Shown here in pieces: positions 27,471 to 43,000 of a stretch of DNA of 64,000 nucleotides (position 1 is its first letter; each line of letters begins with the position of its first letter). Location of the stretch: contig NC_058378.1 in NCBI RefSeq assembly GCF_018350175.1, positions 59,458,001-59,522,000 of the forward strand, written 5' to 3'. A program made the position numbers and the translations under genes. Source of the stretch: Felis catus (taxonomy: Eukaryota). The notes under the pieces were generated by a model. That model worked only from the letters and a program-made list of their open reading frames with translations. It did no database searches and had not been told where the DNA came from.

Positions 27471-31333
<3,863 letters not shown>

Positions 31334-34299
31334 AGGCCGTTCAGAGCCGGACACTGAAATGAGCCTGGCCGGACAGGCAGGGGCATAGACTTTTTTAGCC
31401 CTCTGCCAAGACTACCTCTGTCCTGTGGGCCTAAGCTAGGGGTCCTCCACGGAGGGGTCTAACCTAGGGCAGAGTTCCATAGTGAGAGACTTGAGAACTT
31501 CCTGTGTGCCAGGCTTCGTTCTAGGTCCTGGGAATACAGCACTGACAAGACAGATGAGCTCCCTGCCTCCCTAGAACCTGCAGTCTGATAAGCAAGACAA
31601 GAGAAATAATGAACAAACACAAAACGTATTTTTAGACAGTGAGATACACCATGAAGAAAAGAAAACAGGGCAATACGTACAGCCTAGTGTAGATTAAGGT
31701 CGGAACAGATATCTCTAAGCAGAGGACATGGGAGATGGGGCTTAAAGGACTAGGATTGAGCCGTGTGAACATCTGGAGAAAGAGGGATCCAAGCAGAGCG
31801 GAAATGAGATACAGAGGCCCTGAGGTGGGAATGAGCAAATTGAGTTCAAAGCAGTGGGTTCAGGCCCCCTGAACGTAGAAGGGAATAGAGGACTTCTTGC
31901 CAAACTCAAACCTAGGCTTGTGGAGGCAAAGGGTGACATGGTGGGTACCAGACTCCTCTGTTGCCCATTCTGGACCCTGCCATGAGGTGGCACTTCCTAC
32001 CATTGATTGGATCCTAGGTGCTTGACCCTGTAGTATCAGGGTCCCAAAGGTGGAAGCTGGCCAGAGAGCCATGGAAGGAAGCGGAGCCCAGAGTGCCTGC
32101 CACATGGACACAGATTCCATATTCTGTCACCTCAGACCACTGGGGTGGATAGTCATGACTTTTTGTAGAGCCTTTTCTAGTTTTACTGAAAACAGTTTTT
32201 CCATGGCCTTGGTTTCTGTGTTTTTTTCTTATTTGTCCACCAGGTGTCTCCCCAGTCTAGAACTGGATTTTCCTCTTGTTTCAATAGGGAGTCTTAGCTG
32301 TGCACTCCCAAGGAAACAGGCATTAAAGGGCCTTCACCCACACAACCCCTTATACCTCTTCTTGGCTTAGGGATGACAGAATGGTGTCTCTTTATCCTTA
32401 TCTTCCCTGAAGATCTCCATGTGATCCCTGGCACAGGTGTGGGTCACTGGGCCACATGTCTAGGCCCTGCCTGACCAGCTGTTCCTCAGTGATAGGAGCC
32501 ACTCACTGACCTGAGTGCGGGTTCCGCATGCTGCCTTCTTATCGGACTCCCCATCCATTTGCCTCATCCTTGTACACTCAGTGTTTGTCTTATGTCAGTA
32601 TGTGTCAGAACTCCTAGGATTCTTTAAAAATGAAGAACCTAGGGCCTACTCCCCTCCCCCCACCAACACACACACACAGATGTTTCTGATTCTAGAGGTT
32701 TGAGAAAAGTTACAGGATTTCTCGTCTTTAACAAGTACTGAAGGGGATTGTCATGTAAGAGACTTGTGAAAAATAGTTCTAAATGATGGCACTTTTCCAT
32801 CTCACTTCCTCTGATACCCTTAAGCCCTATTTTCCCTTTAGATTTGCATGCAAGAGTGGTCAGAATGCCAGGTGTCCTGAGGGAGCTGGGGAGAAGCCTT
32901 TTGTAAGGGTAGGCGGAGGTTTCCTGCTCCCTCCAGGCAGGGCTGCCTTATCAGGTTCCCGCAGTCCACCTAAGCGGGCTTCTGGGGCCCTGTGGAAGGC
33001 TCTGGGCTCTCTGGTCTGTTGGGTGTGAGAACTATGGCTACAGCTGACTCCTGAAATAGACCGTGGAACAAAGCTGTTCTCTGGGGAAGAACCTGTGGGG
33101 GAGGGAGGGGGTAGTTCCTCCAGGGCCTCCCTTCTTGGGGGTCTCCCAGACTGGCTGGAGCCAGGCCTCCTAATCCCGCAGTAATCATTCCCAGCCGCCG
33201 GCTGGTCTAGGCCTCATCCAGGGTCTATAACAACGTCAGCCATGCCTTCCAGATGCACACCACCAGGTCAGTCCTACCTCTAAGGATGTGGGTTCTACAT
33301 CCCACATTCTGATCTACTGGGAACTCCCGGTGAGTTCTCAGGAAATCTCTGAGGTCCCTGTGAATTGGTGATAGAGGGACAGACACACACTTGCCTGTTT
33401 GTCTTGCCCCACCCTCCTAGCAGACTCCCTGCCCGGCACAATCGAGAATAATGATGGGGGGCAGGGGAAGCTAATGCTCCCCCAGCCCTCCCCCTACACA
33501 AACACATTCCATTGCACCCCTGTCTTAAACTCCTCACATCAAGATTAGCCCAAAGTATGTTCAAGAGTCCCAGGAGCCTAGAAAGCAGTGGGGGAATCCC
33601 TGGGAGCCACCGTCCCTGTACCCAACCAGAGCAGATTAAGTCCAATTACCCTGGTTCTGCCTATGTCCAATTGGATATTAAGAATCTCCTTGAGCATTCA
33701 GGAAGGGCCTGGCCAAGCAGGGTCCAGCTGGATCTGCAGCTCTCTCAGATTCCGGGTCACATTTGTCTGTGAGGGGGGCAGCTTCAGTCCTCCAGCAGCT
33801 TCGTTACTGCAGATGGGTTTGAGAAGGGACTAAATTCACTGCACTCCCGCTGCCCAAGTATTCAGGCTGCGAGTGTGGCCCAGATACCTATAGACCTCGC
33901 AGTCTGTGCCTTCCCACAGGCCGCCTCCGGTGCCATGGAGGGAGGGAGCCCTAGGTGCCTCCCTGCAATACAAGGCAACTTCCTGTTTGTGCCTGTGGGT
34001 GGAACTTTATGAGTCTAAGGGAAGCCTGGCCCCTGCTCTGTGGGGGGCCAGAACTGGCAAGCACACTCACCTGGGCAGACACCTACTCCAGGGGAGGGGG
34101 AAGGTAGTGGTGCTAGGGCAGCTCTGACCCGAGGGTGGGGCGGGGTCTGTTTTGGTGAAACCTGAGCCTTCTTTGTCTGCTTCCTAGGGGTTTTCCCGGT
34201 GCCTAGGGAAGGAGCCGAGAGTGGACTTGGTTTGGCTCCCCACCGGGTCGGGCAGGTGGCAGTAAAGCCCTATCGCCAACTTGGTTAGGGCACCCAGGT

Positions 34300-35200
34300 A
34301 GTTTAGCTCTCGGTCACGTGCTGCTCGGCCCTTTCCCAGGTCGCAAGCCAAATCCAGAAGGCTGTGAAGTCGGAGGCCAGCGGAGCAGCCTCAGGCCACC
34401 GTTGAGCTACTGCTGGGCTGGATACCGGGTCGGCTGCTGAGGGGGTGCTGGGCAGACCACTCCCCTCCTGGGCCGGGGGCGCGGCCTCAGCCGCCCCGCC
34501 CCGCCCCGCTCCACCAGGCCCGGCCAGGCGGGCGCCCGGAGTCCGGAGCCCGGAGCTGGCTGGGAGCCGGCGGATCTGCGGCGAGGAGGTGCCCGCGCTG
34601 GAGCAGGAGCTGGGCGGGAGCTGGAGCGGCGGCGCAGGTGGCGCTGGGTGAGTGGTGGGGACACGGAGGTGTCGGAACTCCAGCCTTCCACACATCCCGG
34701 CTCCGGAGCGAACTTTCCCGATCTGGGGAAGCCGGGGACTGGAGTGAGAAAGGGGTCCCCACTCTGGGCGACGGGGGCGGGGCGCAGGCGAGGAGTCTGA
34801 ACAGGGAACCGACACAAACTCACACCAGCGGGCACACACACGCGCGCACACAGACCCACGCACTTGGGACACACGAACACACGTGCATTCAGGAAAGGAC
34901 GCGCCCCATAGATTACCCCTGCAGTCCCTGGAGCAGCGCCACTGGCCCGCACGGACCCCCAGCGGACAGAGCGCTCTGCTGTCGCGCACTTGACGGGGGT
35001 TGGAGATAAAGGGCTGCCCTGTGACCGCCGACGGGGGCGGGCCGGGTGGGACACCTCCCGAGGTTCCTGCTTCCTGGCCGCCCACAGGTGAAGACTTAGA
35101 CGTAAACAGGCGCCCAGCACGTGATCGCTTCGCAGACAAGTGGGCTGTGCTCCCCCACCCGCGCATCAGGGCGAGGACCTCCCTCCCCAGTCCTGGGCGA
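34300..35200 (+). promoter_or_regulatory. LZTS2: LZTS2 distal CpG-island promoter / non-coding first exon (donor TGG|GTGAGT after 34647)
   Basis: CpG-rich, GC boxes, E-box cacgtg, strong donor. Confidence 0.65.
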
Positions 35201-36699
35201 GTCTGCAAGGTCTCCAGCCGAGCAGTATTCCATTCTCCTTCCAGAGAAGTGTTAAACCTTCCCACAGAAGTGGGAACAGAACGCCCCCTGGAGTCCGGGT
35301 AGCGCAGGACTGGAGACTTGCACTGGGTGGGGTGACCTGGGCTCCTCTCCTTCCTTCACCCGAGCATGTTCGTGGTGCCCTCATCCCTGAAGGTATCGAA
35401 GAAGGGAGTTATTTTTGATGGCAGTGTACAGCAGCCCCTGCCCCATACCTCCAGTCCAGGGAGCAGCTGCCTGAGCCTTAGTGGGTCCCCTTCCTACCAC
35501 TCCCCTCCTTGCACAACTGGGAGCTCTTCCCCCCAATGTAGGAGCAGAAAGCCCACTCCTGCGAGGGTGGGAGCCCTTTCCCGGACAATGCATGAGGGTA
35601 AATGTCCCTAAATACAAGAGTGGGCCTATCTCCCTCCCCTAGAAGGGAGGATGAGCCCCCTCCCTCAGGGAATGAGGGAGTGGGCAGCGGCCTTCTGCCT
35701 CCCTCACCGCCCCACCCTCCACCCCTACACACATGCTGAGCCCAGCTGCTGCCTGAGCTTCTGGGCTGGCTGCCAGAAAGGGGAGGAGGCTCCTGGTGCC
35801 CCAAGAGGCTGGGATCAGGGCAAGGCCAGGGGAGGGGGTCTCTATTGGGGAAGGGGGGGCTCAGTCTGTTCTTGTAAGGCTCAGGGTCTGGGATGAGCCT
35901 GAGGGTAGTTGGGTTATGTCTCCCTTTCCAGGGAAAAAGAAAGAAAAACAACCCTTTCCATAGAGCTAAAAATAGAGCTGAGAGCTGGCCAGGGCTGTGG
36001 CCTGGAAGGGGGGGATGCTCCTTCCTGGGGCAGAGGAGCTCTGGCAGGCCTTGGCCTTGGGGGTGGGGTTGCAAGTAGGGGGTGGGAAGCTGTTCTTGCC
36101 CAGGGGTGTGGGCATCAGCTGACCTGACTGGGGCACAGAGACCCTTCGGGGAAAGTCTGTGTGGTAGAATGTTTGTGAAACTCACTGTTTATGAAAGTTG
36201 TCTGACTGTGAATGAGACCACCAATGTGTGAAAGATGCTTAGGAGAGGAAGCCTATTTAAGATCCTGAGTCGGTAGTAAGGACTTTGAGTTGTTGTGAAA
36301 GACTGTGCACAACAAGGTTTGTGACACGGAGTATGTCTGTGTGTGCGGTGGCCTGAAAGATTATGGAAAGGAGCGTGGAACCACGTGATGGATGAGACTG
36401 TGTGATTGTGGCTGCGTGGGACTGACTGCATGTGGGAAAGGTCGTGTGGGTGTTATGAAGACTGTGGTGTTTGCCAGAAGGTGAGAATATCTGCGACCCT
36501 GAGAAGGCAGAGGAATGTTGTCAGCTGTGAGACTGGTGTAGGTTTGGACCGGCTCACCGCAGTGATTGTTGGGGGACCAGGGGCTGCGCCTCTCTCCCAG
36601 CAATGACCTCCTTCTTACATGATTCTGAGGGAAGGTTGGGGAGCAGAGAGCCGCGCCTGAGACAGGCCTGGGCTCGCGCAGGAGAGGGTACAGGGCCGG

Positions 36700-37650
36700 G
36701 GAGTTGTGTAGAGGCCCCCAAGGTGGAGGGCGAGGGGGTGACTGAGTGTATTCACCGAATGCGCCGCCAGGTGGCGCCGCCTCCGCAAGTCCAAATATTC
36801 CTCCACCAACCGCTGGGGGTGGGGGGCAGGCCCGGCGCGAGCCTCGGCCCCCGACTCATCCTGGGGCGCAGGGTCCCGGTAGCAGGGGTTGGGGCGGGGG
36901 AGGGGCAGCCGACTCTCGGCGTCTCGCTCTGGACTCCGAAGCCCGAGAGTGTGTCTAGCGGGGGAGGCTTCGACCGAAGAAGCGGAGGGGGAAGGGCGGC
37001 CGCCTTGGCGCCCGGCCCTTTGTGCTCGAACAATGACCAGCTGCTGCTGGCCCCGGGGCCCGGGTAGGGGTAGTAGAGGGTGACCCGCGGCCGCGGCCGA
37101 GTCCTGAGCCGACCGGCTCTCGGAGCGGGGGCGCGGGGGGACGGGGATCCTGGGTCCCCCGGCGCAGCCCCCGCGAGCGCCTGGTCGGCCTCGCGTGACG
37201 CGGGGTGCCTGCGCGTGTCCGCGCCCGGGGCGGGGACGCCCCTCCGACCCCTCCCCCGCGCTGCGCCGCCCACTCGGGCCGGCCGGGGGCCGGCCGGGCT
37301 AGGGGCGCCGCGGAGGCGGGGCCGGGCCGGGCGGCTCCGAGTGGCCGCGCGCGGGCTGGAGCCGGGCGGCGCGCCTGTGGAGCGCTGGGGGCGGCCCGGG
37401 GCTGAGCATGGAGCGGCGCGGCGGAGGTGAGGGGGAGGGGGGGGCCGGGCTGGGAGGCGACCCGGGGGCGCCCCCAACTTGTGCGCGGCGGTGGGCGGGT
37501 GGGGAGGAGGCGTCCCCCAGCCGCCCGCACTTAATAGAGGCGGGGAGGGGGGGGGTGTCGGGGGGGCCCTGGAGGGTGGGTTGGGGGCTCCCGGCTTCCT
37601 ATCGCGGAATGCGAACTCGTGATCCCAGGCTCGATCCCGCTTGACTAGTC
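36700..37650 (+). promoter_or_regulatory. LZTS2: LZTS2 proximal CpG-island promoter / alternative first exon (donor GAG|GTGAGG after 37426)
   Basis: Very CpG-dense block with a strong donor at its 3' side. Confidence 0.65.
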
Positions 37651-40022
37651 CTTGGAGTTTGGTGGGGGGGAGACTTTCCCCAACTCTTCAGCCCCCAGGA
37701 CAGGTCTGCGGGAGTTGGGCTTAGCCAGATCTGCCCGGGGCCCTGGCCGAAGCCAGCACCCGGCTGCCCCCGGCCCACGAAGGGGGTGTGCGTGCGCTGT
37801 GCCAGAGTGATTACTCAAGGAGTGCTGGGAGAGCCAGGGGTTCTCTTTCCCACAGACACAACGCGTTTCTCAAAATGGAGCCTCCACTTGCCCCTCCTCT
37901 CTCGGGCTCCCGCTCTTGGAGCCCGGCTGGCTGGGCCTGGCTTTCCAGAGGCCTGGCTCTGGCTCCTTGGGCGTCTGGCTCTCGGGGCCCAGCTTCCATG
38001 TCTCTTCTGGGTTTAGGGGCCCCTGGCTCTGTGGGGTTCAGGTCCCTGGGCTCACTGGTTCAGCCTGTCTCCCTGTCTGCCTGACCCTGGGGTCTCTCTT
38101 GAGTCTTTGTCTCTGGTCGTTTGGGCCCCTGTCTTTCTCTGAGTCCGCCTGTCTCCTCCCCTTACTTCTCACTTTCTCAGTGCTCGCTGAAGTGGGCAAA
38201 TGCAGACAGCGGTGCCAGCCTCCACTGCCCCCTAAGAAGCCCCTAACCCCACAGCTTTCTCCATGCCCTGGAGTGGTGGGGGAGAGGGCAGAGAGGCGGT
38301 GCCCCGGCTGCCTGGCTCGGGGCTGGCACTTGCCGATGGGCTCAGCGCACCCCCACCCCACCCCCAACCCCCGCTTCCAGGCTCAATCTGGATACCTTCC
38401 CGGTTCTCATGGTCTCCTGACTTGAGTGGGGAGTGGAGGGGGAGCCTCGTGCGATACAAGCAAGAAAGAAGGGGAACGGACCCGGCAAAGGAGTCAGATA
38501 ATGTGTCTGTCCTTTCCCCACACTCGAATGAGTGACAGAAACCAGGCTCCTGCTCACCTAGGTGGCCCTGCTTGCCACCCAGGCTCCCAGCCACTCTCAC
38601 ACATGCTCTGCGCGCACACTGCTCGGCACCCGCTTGTGCACACTCACTTCCCTGTTCGTATGCAGTTTCCACGTAAACTCACGTACATGTGAATGGACAT
38701 CTATCCAGAGATGTTCTCTTCTCTCAGTCACGTTCATACAGCACAAATTTACTTACTACATATGCAGTTACCACTTTTCCGTATTTCCTAAGAGTGATCC
38801 GGAGGCACGCACACACTCGTGCACATACGAACTCACACATACGAATATATGAATGGACTCATACCTCTAGTCAAACATACATACACTCAGATGCACTCGC
38901 GTTTTCACACATTTTCACATACACGCGAAGTAAGTTCATTTCCATGCGCCTGTGCACAGCCCGACACACACCGATGAGTACAAACGCACACTCCTGTTCC
39001 GACTCGATTCCGTCCACTTCTTGGCCCTCGCTCTGCGTGATGATTTCAGCAGATGCCTGAGTCCTGGTCTTCGGCCTCGGGACTGGGGAGGGAGTTCCGG
39101 GCGGAGACTTGCTGTCCGCTTCCAGGAAGGAGCAGAGCCTGGGGAGGTGGAGCCCTCTTCCCTGGATTCCAGGGAAATGAGATCTTAGAGCAGCTGCCAA
39201 AGGTGATGGTGGGGCTTCTACCCTCATCCCGTCCGGGTTACTCTGGGGAATGTCTAAAGCCGCGTGGTTTCTTAGAGGTTGGTGGCATGCCTGTGTAGGC
39301 TCCTTTAGGCCTGATTGATTGGGTATGGTGAGGCCGGGAATTGTCATGGAAACACGCATGAGCCTGTATCCACCTCTGGAAGGCGGGAGACCCCAGAGGG
39401 CACCTGTGGGCTCCCTAAAAGCTCTGGGTTTCTTGTTCGGTCAGCTCCACCCTTGCTGCCTCTCTGGGAGAAACTGAGGCCCAGCTGGGGGAGGCTGGGC
39501 ACTGCCTGGCCTTGGCTCTTTATTCCCTAATTGCCATCTGAGTTGCTGCTGACTCTGTCCCTGAGGTTGCCTGTGCCCAAACTGCCCTCTAATGAGGCCA
39601 CCTGTCCTAGGGGACCAGGAACATGTGCTGGGAGCTGGCAGAGAGCTCCCTCCTAAACTTGAGTCCTAGCCTCCATGAGGGATGCAGGTTCAGGCTGGGG
39701 CCTGGGCCTCTGCTGTTAAGGGCCCTGCGTAACCACCAGGCCTCACATCCCATCATCATCTTTGCTTGTAGAGTCAGTCGTTAGCCCTGTTCAGACCAGA
39801 GTTGGGCAGTGGCCTGGGTCCCAGGAAGAAGTCAGGTTCGTGCTAGTGCTTGGAGGGGGAAGTTGCGGGCAGTCAGGGGGCTGTTTGTCCTGGGACGCGG
39901 GGTCAGGAGAGGGACTCAGGGACTCGGATAGGGAGGGACCTCAAGGTGAAGGGACTCTTACACCCCTGCCCTGCTCACAGGTTCCCCTGGAGGCCCTTGG
40001 CCAGGCCTGAGCCCCTGTCGCC

Positions 40023-43000
40023 ATGGCCATTGTGCAGACTCTGCCAGTGCCACTGGAGCCCACTCCTGAGGCCACCACTGCCCCACAACCTCCAGCCATG
40101 GGCAGCGTGAGCAGCCTCATCTCAGGCCGGNNNNNNNNNNNNNNNNNNNNNNNNNNNNNNNNNNNNNNNNNNNNNNNNNNNNNNNNNNNNNNNNNNNNNN
40201 NNNNNNNNNNNNNNNNNNNNNNNNNNNNNNNNNNNNNNNNNNNNNNNNNNNNNNNNNNNNNNNNNNNNNNNNNNNNNNCCAGCTTCACCTACATCAACGA
40301 GGACTTCCGGACAGAGTCACCCCCCAGCCCGAGCAGTGACCTTGAGGATGCCCGAGAGCAGCGGGCACGCAACGCCCATCTCCGCGGCCCCCCACCCAAG
40401 CTCATCCCTGTCTCTGGAAAGCTGGAGAAGGTGAGGACCAGCCCTTCCTTTGGGGCCTGGGTGGAATCAGGAGCCCCTGAAGAAGCCGGAATTTGAGGGT
40501 CGATTCAGAGGAAAGAATGTGGGCTCCCGATTCACCAGACCTGGGTTCTAATCCCAGCTCTGCCTCCTTCTAGCTGCATGACCTTAGGAAAATCACTTAA
40601 CCTTTCTGAGCCAAAGTTTCTGCACCTGTAAAATGGAGGTAATAGGTTAGCTCTCCTGTGATCGTTGTGAGCATTCGATCAAATAACGTACGTAAGGGTT
40701 TAGCCTAGTACCTGTCACCTAACGTACTCAATAAATGTCAGCTGCTCAAATTACTGTTACTGCACAACACCTACATGTCTGACGTTGAACGAGGTCTTTG
40801 ACTTTGCTGAGCCTCCGTTTCCTCATCTGTAATATGGGGATACTGATGATATTTTACTTGTATGGCTGTTGTAATGATTAGAGATGAACCTTTTAAATTG
40901 CTTGATGTAGAGGACATCAGGAGGCCCTCAGCCGGTGGTAGCATTTATTATTAACATGTGGGGACCGGGACCCCAGATGGGAGGGCAGGGAGTATGATAA
41001 GGGCTTTGAAAGATTGGGCAGCTGATCCCCAGTGTCCCATGGCACCTCATTTCAGAACATGGAGAAAATCCTGATCCGCCCAACAGCCTTCAAGCCAGTG
41101 CTGCCCAAACCTCGAGGGGCACCATCCCTACCTAGCTTCCTGGGTCCTCGGGCCGCCGGACTGTCTGGGAGCCAGGGCAGCCTAACACAGCTGTTTGGGG
41201 GCCCTGCCTCGTCCTCCTCTTCCTCCTCCTCCTCGGCTGCTGACAAACCCCTGGCACTGAGTGGCTGGGCCAGTGGCTGCCCGTCGGGGACACTGTCTGA
41301 CTCCGGCCGAAATTCACTGTCCAGCCTGCCCACCTACAGCACCGGGGGTGCAGAGCCAGCCAACGGCTCCCCAGGCGGGCACCTGCCCTCCCACGGCCCC
41401 GGGCGGGGGGCACTGCCGGGTCCAGCCCGAGGGGCCCCTACTGGGCCCTCCCACTCGGACAGTGGTCGGTCTTCCTCCAGCAAGAGCACAGGCTCCCTGG
41501 GAGGCCGTGTGGCTGGGGGGCTCTTGGGCAGCGGTGCCCGGGCCTCCCCTGACAGCGGCTCCTGTGGGGAGCGCTCTCCGCCCCCGCCCCCACCCCCGCC
41601 ACCCCCTTCGGATGAGGCCCTGCTGCACTGTGTCCTGGAAGGAAAGCTCCGAGACCGTGAGGCAGAGCTGCAGCAGCTGCGGGACAGTCTGGACGAGAGT
41701 GAGGTGACCATGTGTCAGGTGTGGTCAGCAGCGATAATGGGGGTGGCATGGCAGGACATCCAGAGGTGCTGGGGAGTCCGAGGAGCATTTCTGTTTGTGC
41801 TGGGTGGGGGGGGCGGTTCCCCAGCCCAGCTGTCCGGCGTAACCTGCAGAGTGGTAAGGAATCGAAGCCAGCGCCACCGTCTGCTGTCTTTCAGACTTGA
41901 GCAAGATACTTAATGGTACTGAGCCTCGGTTTCCTCATCTATAAATGGAGATATTTATCATGAGGATGAAGTAAGGCAAAGGCTGTAAAGTGCTTAGAAT
42001 AAACGCCTGGCACCTAGAAACTCCTACGGAAGCGCTTGCTATTATGGATTGTTTCTAGCGTCCTAAAAGTGGTTGTGATTATTGTCGCGATCATTATCCC
42101 GGGGCAGCGGAGCCTGCCGTCCCTGAGCCCAGCCACTGGGCCGCCAGAGCAGTCGGTGACCGGGGAGTTGTGGGCGGGCGGGGCTCGGGGTCGGGGGTGG
42201 GGGAGCCGCCAGGACCCAGGGCCGCCTTGTCGTCCCCAGGCTTACGAGGACCGGCAGCGGCACTGGCCGCGGGAGCGCGAGGCCCTGCGGGAGGACGGCG
42301 CGGCCCAGGCACAGCGGGCACAGCGGGCCCAACAGCTGCTGCAGCTGCAGGTATTCCAGCTGCAGCAGGAGAAGCGGCAGCTGCAGGACGACTTTGCACA
42401 GCTGCTGCAGGAACGGGAGCAGCTGGAGCGGCGCTGCGCCACCTTCGAGCGGGAGCAGCGGGAGCTCGGGCCGAGGCTCGAGGAGACCAAGTGGGAGGTG
42501 GGCCAGACCAGGAGGGGCAGGGAGCGGGGCCTGCTGGGAACAGGAGTCCAGCCACACCCACCCCCTCTGGCCTGCTACTCCTAGAGGACCCCCCCACCCT
42601 CCCCTCTGTGAGATGAAGCTCCCCCTCTGACCTTCCTTTCTGGGTGGGGGTCTCCCTGTGCCACCCTCGTGGGGCTCCTCAGCAGTCGGGTTTAGCGCTC
42701 ACACAGCCAGTGGTGTTCCCACCCGCGGCCTCCCGACCAGTTAAGAATAAGAACGTAGTGCTGCTGTGCGCCGGGCACCGTTCTATGTCATATGGGGGGG
42801 GATCTTCTAATCCTCATAACAGCCCTGCCAGCTGGGTGTTGTTAACATCCCCGTTTGAGGAAACTGAGGCCCAGAAAGGCTGGAGCCCAGGATTACAGCT
42901 AGTCCGTGGCAGGGCTGAGATTTGAACTCAGGCCATCTGGCTCTAGTGTCTATGCTGTTAACCAAGACACCGCGGTGCCTGCCTGTGGAAACGTGGGCAC

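Follow-up and report, generated by a model that had tools for sequence, protein, structure and literature searches.

The DNA analyzed here (the window) is a stretch of 64,000 nucleotides (nt) on the forward strand of Felis catus NC_058378.1, and positions are numbered within it. It contains the gene LZTS2, whose 5' region comprises candidate alternative first exons, a putative upstream open reading frame (uORF) that begins at an upstream ATG (uATG) at 37408, and two in-frame start codons, Met1 and Met26 (Table 1). The gene is the LZTS2 ortholog of the LZTS/Fezzin family by both domain content and similarity: a Fez1 domain (PF06818) is present in the last LZTS2 exon of the window (E 1.6e-65), identity to the top matches is 95-97% over 220 amino acids in a later exon, and the first 25 residues are those of named Felis and Panthera entries. 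The acceptor of exon 2, before 39981, reads pyrimidine-rich CACAG/ and is the richest of the 21 AG sites in 39900-40130, and its position 42 nt before Met1 is backed by bat and rabbit models, in which in-frame segments of 14 codons are found. Met1 has the context gtcgccATGg at 40023 and Met26 the context ccagccATGg at 40098. RNA structure around the two starts is not stronger than that of shuffled sequences (z -0.57), and a hairpin-based explanation was dropped on this ground.

The layout with two in-frame starts is conserved across jawed vertebrates. Among the best 120 of 504 homologue hits, which cover sharks, bony fish, amphibians, reptiles, birds and mammals, 111 orthologs have both the Met1 head and the motif MGSV[SG]S, 22-39 amino acids apart; three others begin at the motif and six are without it (incomplete, internally spliced or variant models), and the motif is present in 114 of the 120. 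The residue preceding Met26 forces a purine at position -3 in 82 of 88 distinct ortholog rows, in a linker that otherwise varies freely, and among non-mammals it does so in 51 of 57 rows, where the remaining 14 positions of the linker range from 11 to 43 of 57, counts that describe a pattern and not a p-value because the rows share kinship. Five rows with a proline before Met26 belong to eel-lineage fishes. Substrates of N-myristoylation start with Met-Gly and carry Ser or Thr at position 6, a consensus to which the MGSVSS at 40098 conforms, and the ten residues MGSVSSLISG are identical (10/10) to the start of LZTS1 in the same genome. LZTS1, or PSD-Zip70, was reportedly found to be N-myristoylated by Konno in 2002. 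The proposal, made in a preliminary description of this DNA, that Met26 is a second start of the myristoylation type is supported by the retention of the layout in 111 of 120 orthologs and of the -3 purine. The idea of internal-start myristoylation in LZTS2 is not new: in PMC8423818, endogenous LZTS2 is located at junctions, unlike the N-tagged protein, and an internal start is surmised.

Several gene models vary at this site. In two rodent models (P0033 and P0045) the splice that leaves exon 2 directly follows Met-Gly-Ser, so that the Ser6 of the motif is lost, and two jerboa models (P0215 and P0216) skip both Met1 and Met26. The window has a GTGAGC after 40106, near Met26, and splicing within 40098-40112 is a possible splice-level control of lipidation. 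An acceptor-like site at 40096 (40074-40097; ccccacaacctccag/ccATGg) sits between Met1 and Met26, and the Met26 form could in principle originate from its use, which would skip Met1. This site has 12 pyrimidines compared with 13 at the main acceptor, and the proximal donor joined to it would put ATG 37408 in frame (21 nt). A MERR start was found in 0 of 247 proteins, and no mammalian model begins at an intact MGSVSS, one goat entry beginning at a variant MG; a splicing origin of the short form is accordingly considered very improbable.

Cap analysis gene expression (CAGE) in human HeLa cells lists 8 LZTS2 peaks with 456 tags, grouped in two clusters. The distal cluster, -5468 to -5455 from the start codon (169 tags), corresponds by raw offset to 34555-34568 of the window, and the proximal cluster, -2760 to -2710 (287/456 tags), to 37263-37313. 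These offsets match both candidate first exons and agree with the two LZTS2 promoters assumed previously. CAGE rows labelled LZTS3 or N4BP3 were discarded as nearest-gene assignments that lie far from those promoters. In the proximal exon, ATG 37408 is found in a strong Kozak context, ctgagcATGg (-3 A, +4 G), 19 nt before the donor at 37426 and about 95-145 nt downstream of the mapped region of transcription start sites. The predicted splice from 37426 to 39981 would produce an open reading frame (ORF) of 35 amino acids in frame 2 relative to Met1, which runs across Met1, stops at 40067-40069 and leaves 28 nt before the Met26 ATG at 40098. The distal exon (to 34647) has no ATG, and none occurs throughout 34010-35365. 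In all of this geometry the coordinates of the preliminary description proved correct. Conditional on the 37426 to 39981 junction, the frame has the defining features of an overlapping uORF (uoORF), namely a leader AUG, out of frame, with a stop past the main AUG; about 360 nt separate this stop from the exon junction that follows. Of 24 sequencing runs listed by a search, none is on record as RNA.

Table 1. Features of the LZTS2 5' region in the window
Feature	Positions	Strand	Remarks
Distal first exon	34555..34647	+	No ATG; donor TGG/GTGAGT after 34647; from human CAGE offsets
End of candidate leader exon	35366..35392	+	ATG at 35366, frame 0; from bat models
Middle leader region	36119..36480	+	Several ATGs; candidate donors 36154 and 36480; from bat 5' exons and human ribosome profiling (Ribo-seq) uORF c10norep145
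Proximal CpG-island first exon	37263..37426	+	5' end approximate; best donor GAG/GTGAGG after 37426; from CAGE offsets and jerboa model
CTGAGC, one base from a GTGAGC donor	37402..37407	+	Apparent jerboa exon end at the equivalent place
Candidate overlapping uORF, 5' part	37408..37426	+	ATG in strong context, 19 nt to donor
Candidate overlapping uORF, 3' part in exon 2	39981..40069	+	Frame 2, across Met1; stop TGA 40067-40069
In-frame TGA just upstream of Met1	40008..40010	+	Arg in bat and rabbit models
Met1 and 25-residue N-terminal extension	40023..40097	+	Head conserved across jawed vertebrates and common to LZTS3
Met26 and MGSVSSLISG N-myristoylation-type N-terminus	40098..40130	+	Ten residues identical to the LZTS1 start of the same genome

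The uORF arrangement is uncommon, not remarkable. The CpG islands of the window hold 18 ATGs (5 of them strong) in 4000 nt, corresponding to 0.56 expected ATGs and 0.16 expected strong ATGs per 125 nt of island, and when this density is combined by hand arithmetic with the rates at which off-frame stops occur in the LZTS2 coding sequence (11/511 and 6/511 codons) the whole geometry is expected by chance at roughly 3%. Dinucleotide shuffles of the exon reproduced it in 6.3% of 3000 cases, a figure with an upward bias, since AT dinucleotides are preserved in the shuffling. No homologue of the uORF-frame peptide was found in near-length or longer proteins or among 1.84 billion representatives, which is weak evidence as such peptides are rarely called, and a literature search, with most subscription journals outside its reach, returned no description of an LZTS2 uORF at 37408.

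The sole cross-species view of the proximal exon is given by one predicted model from one species, the jerboa isoform P0216. Its nine N-terminal residues map best to 37375-37401 with 4 mismatches in 27 nt, ending before CTGAGC, and this placement is the best of 104 donor-like sites. In 5000 shuffles of the jerboa peptide an equally good placement was obtained 244 times anywhere, 7 times at a donor-like site and 20 times inside the proximal exon. A placement of the peptide at the 37426 donor was set aside (9-12 mismatches vs 4). The donor of the jerboa model would thus be positioned 25 nt earlier than 37426, which would make the site of ATG 37408 intron position +7, and the jerboa proximal exon has an ATG of its own in frame 0. 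The human 187-nt untranslated region, whose length fits a 145-nt exon plus 42 nt, was dropped as support for the 37426 donor, as it cannot distinguish 37426 from 37401. Mammalian DNA for alignment was sought in metagenome contigs, where none of 310 protein-pattern matches was confirmed and a 26-nt exon pattern gave 0 matches; a look-up of windows similar to this one likewise produced none. At the 3' end of the uORF, Glu/Asp16, the source of the GA in its stop codon, is widely kept; the third base of codon 15 is unreadable from proteins.

To locate other leader exons, the N-terminal extensions of annotated models were back-translated onto the window. Bat models were placed exactly at the GT donors 36154, 39202 and 35392, and three emballonurid bat models map to the 35366-35392 region with 1 mismatch in 21 nt, ending AAG/GTATCG. 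If spliced to 39981, ATG 35366 would open an 18-codon uORF whose end lies 12 nt short of Met1 and 87 nt short of Met26, and this candidate has a better bypass geometry than that of the 37408 uORF. A rabbit extension maps to 38490, where the window is without a GT at +1, and models P0031, P0050 and P0174 as well as four marsupial extensions gave no clean match on the window by this method. The intron stretches 38455-38490 and 39167-39202 are orthologous to 5' exon ends of the rabbit and bat models. At least six alternative leader exon ends occur across mammalian models, and the leader is evolutionarily labile. Among the 7,264 human Ribo-seq ORFs in the supplement of PMC10032668 the sole LZTS2 row is a middle-exon uORF, c10norep145, orthologous to about 36244-36402; a 37408-type uORF is not in this catalogue, though the proximal promoter carries the larger part of the HeLa CAGE tags. 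The layout of leader ORFs in LZTS2 thus appears, from these models and the catalogue, to vary between mammals. Because leader exons other than the proximal one carry uATGs (35366 and the middle region), distal transcripts are not reliably uORF-free, and the earlier assignment of a uORF-free long form to the distal promoter is unsafe. The TGA at 40008 in the window is Arg in bat and rabbit, and frame-0 upstream ATGs therefore give N-terminal extensions in those species and uORFs here.

Such a labile leader would also suit a near-neutral uATG, weakly used or confined to a minor splice form, with leakage past Met1 alone setting the ratio of long to short protein. The chance expectation of 0.56 ATGs for every 125 nt of island points in the same direction, as does, weakly, the failure to find a protein resembling the uORF frame. 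On the other hand, the strong context of ATG 37408 and its distance from the mapped transcription start region lead one to expect capture of scanning ribosomes if the ATG is exonic, and this genome has no good donor upstream of it; we therefore regard near-neutrality as rather unlikely.

The data are probably best explained by a two-start LZTS2 with a predicted myristoylated Met26 form, in which the 37408 uORF would be a lineage-restricted brake and not a conserved switch. Met26 would be reached on any transcript by leaky scanning together with some reinitiation, and its product is predicted to be an N-myristoylated form at membranes or junctions. If the 37426 to 39981 junction and the uATG are used, the 35-codon overlapping uORF would brake initiation at Met1, lower the output and tilt the long:short ratio. 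The uATG most likely became exonic when, in this lineage, the donor moved from 37401 to 37426, although the change may have run the opposite way. Ribosomes that start at an overlapping uORF pass the main start while elongating, as stated in the introduction of PMC3387777. Those starting at the uATG would consequently pass Met1, and the Met26 form would be obtained from them only by reinitiation. According to PMC6614817, reinitiation falls beyond 13-18 codons and is best at a spacing of 80-90 nt; with 35 codons and 28 nt the LZTS2 uORF lies outside these limits, which are not strict.

A toy scanning model with assumed parameters was run at 18 settings. With capture of 0.8 at the uATG and 0.9 at Met1 and reinitiation of 0.1, the modeled Met26 share rose from 0.09 to 0.33, total output went down to 0.27 and the absolute amount of short form was unchanged; the 18 settings together gave shares between 0.11 and 0.89. 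On the basis of this outcome the uORF is read as a ratio-tilting brake atop leaky scanning, the tilt being bought by repressing the long form. The preliminary description had proposed a conserved promoter toggle instead, in which proximal transcripts reinitiate at Met26 to give the myristoylated protein and distal transcripts make the long, non-acylated form. Modeled shares of up to 0.85-0.89, reached at uATG capture 0.95 and reinitiation 0.3, would be compatible with such a toggle, as are the exact geometry with a uATG and a Met1 both in strong context, the activity of two promoters in human and the precedents of SAPAP3 and TP53BP1. The jerboa exon, in contrast, apparently ends before the ATG site, the human Ribo-seq catalogue lacks this ORF and holds a different LZTS2 uORF, uATGs are present in other leader exons, the geometry has a chance level of about 3-6%, and both the length and the spacing of the uORF are suboptimal. 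A conserved toggle is for these reasons unlikely, and the case for the 37408 uORF as a conserved control element is weak. From the original interpretation, the conserved second start at Met26, the two promoters and the acceptor 42 nt before Met1 are retained, and the conserved uORF-driven promoter toggle is not supported.

Several points weigh against the lineage-restricted brake on a two-start LZTS2. In PMC6614817 reinitiation amounted to about 80% for a frame of 58 codons followed by a gap of 42 nt. Met1 has a strong context, so that few ribosomes may simply leak past it and a device for bypassing it would be useful. The jerboa evidence consists of one predicted model in one species, which may use both donors, and the human untranslated region fits either the 37426 or the 37401 donor. 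The paralogs LZTS3 and N4BP3 carry candidate uORFs of similar logic. LZTS2 is absent from the myristoylome supplements PMC10696250 and PMC4200515, as are LZTS1, LZTS3 and N4BP3; in a HeLa start-site table (PMC13219423, search covering 9 of its 13 files) the single LZTS2 row is labelled 'Annotated', and the literature and supplements searched contained no direct proof of Met26 initiation or myristoylation.

Two paralogs in the same genome share the layout, an in-frame Met preceding MGSV at -108 in LZTS3 and at -33, in weak context, in N4BP3; LZTS1 starts directly at MGSV. The heads of LZTS2 and LZTS3 align. An N4BP3 row that was out of frame in one alignment was disregarded. In the LZTS3 leader, an ATG at -849 from the MGSV Met opens a 36-amino acid uORF nearly identical to human c20riboseqorf10, and a second ATG at -779, with candidate donors at -686/-683 and an acceptor at -126, would start a frame running across Met1 to a stop 73 nt ahead of the MGSV Met. 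The same -31 stop position in LZTS2 and LZTS3 was treated as a probable coincidence because linker length varies across vertebrates and frame-2 stops are common. A CpG-island exon of N4BP3, -5310 from the MGSV Met, ends exactly in gccagcATG/GTGAGT; with 8 candidate acceptors, the frame of this exon-terminal ATG stops 6 nt before Met1 in 4 cases and far upstream in 3, and is in frame in 1. LZTS1 (L009:3963-4067) has an out-of-frame ATG 97 nt before its start, with a frame that overlaps it, and the LZTS1 uoORF of the human catalogue has a similar peptide start (shared DCPLL) in a different frame. A family-wide uORF-gated myristoyl switch, by which LZTS2, LZTS3 and N4BP3 would hide an LZTS1-type start behind an upstream Met and the ORFs of leader ATGs (LZTS2 37408 and 35366, LZTS3, N4BP3) would close either in the stretch from Met to Met or immediately ahead of Met1, is a doubtful extension of these observations. 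If true, leader choice would dose membrane-anchored versus soluble Fezzin scaffolds, with uATGs turning over between lineages. Elsewhere in the window, 30530-30745 holds an insertion that resembles a short interspersed nuclear element, putatively of carnivore type, and includes a poly-T tail as well as an AG repeat.

LZTS2 has been assigned to the cytosol as well as to cell-cell junctions, and constructs with an N-terminal tag fail to show the junctional pool (PMC8423818). A conserved Met26 start that exposes a myristoylation signal would, if used, explain both locations, and studies of N-tagged LZTS2 would then report only one proteoform. Should leader uORFs set the ratio of the two forms, promoter and splice choice would control lipidation. 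Among the closest known cases, Baskaran et al. (2021; PMC8423818) put forward the same idea for the same gene, with a myristoylation signal conserved among LZTS proteins that explains the junctional location; it is a surmise only, put forward with neither a mechanism nor a link to a uORF or promoter, and the text available contains no direct test of it. That both Mets, the -3 purine and the head common to LZTS2 and LZTS3 are conserved strengthens this surmise and makes it directly testable. The mechanism class, a uORF-shifted isoform ratio, is already known from SAPAP3 and TP53BP1. In SAPAP3, a scaffold protein with alpha and beta forms, uORF2 in a GC-rich leader favors a downstream in-frame start over the full-length one, similar to what is proposed for LZTS2; unlike in LZTS2, this was shown by mutagenesis and on a single mRNA, with no promoter switch or lipidation in the part of PMC3387777 available. 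In TP53BP1 (PMC10193022), use of an alternative promoter brings in a uORF by which initiation is diverted beyond the main AUG, as would be the case here, and that uORF has 5 codons, ends 15 nt before the main AUG and acts by delayed reinitiation to give an out-of-frame small protein. In contrast, the LZTS2 uORF has 35 codons and extends across Met1, and an in-frame truncation would be produced. LZTS1/PSD-Zip70 has as its first ten residues those of the LZTS2 Met26 start and differs from LZTS2 in having no in-frame upstream Met in this genome.

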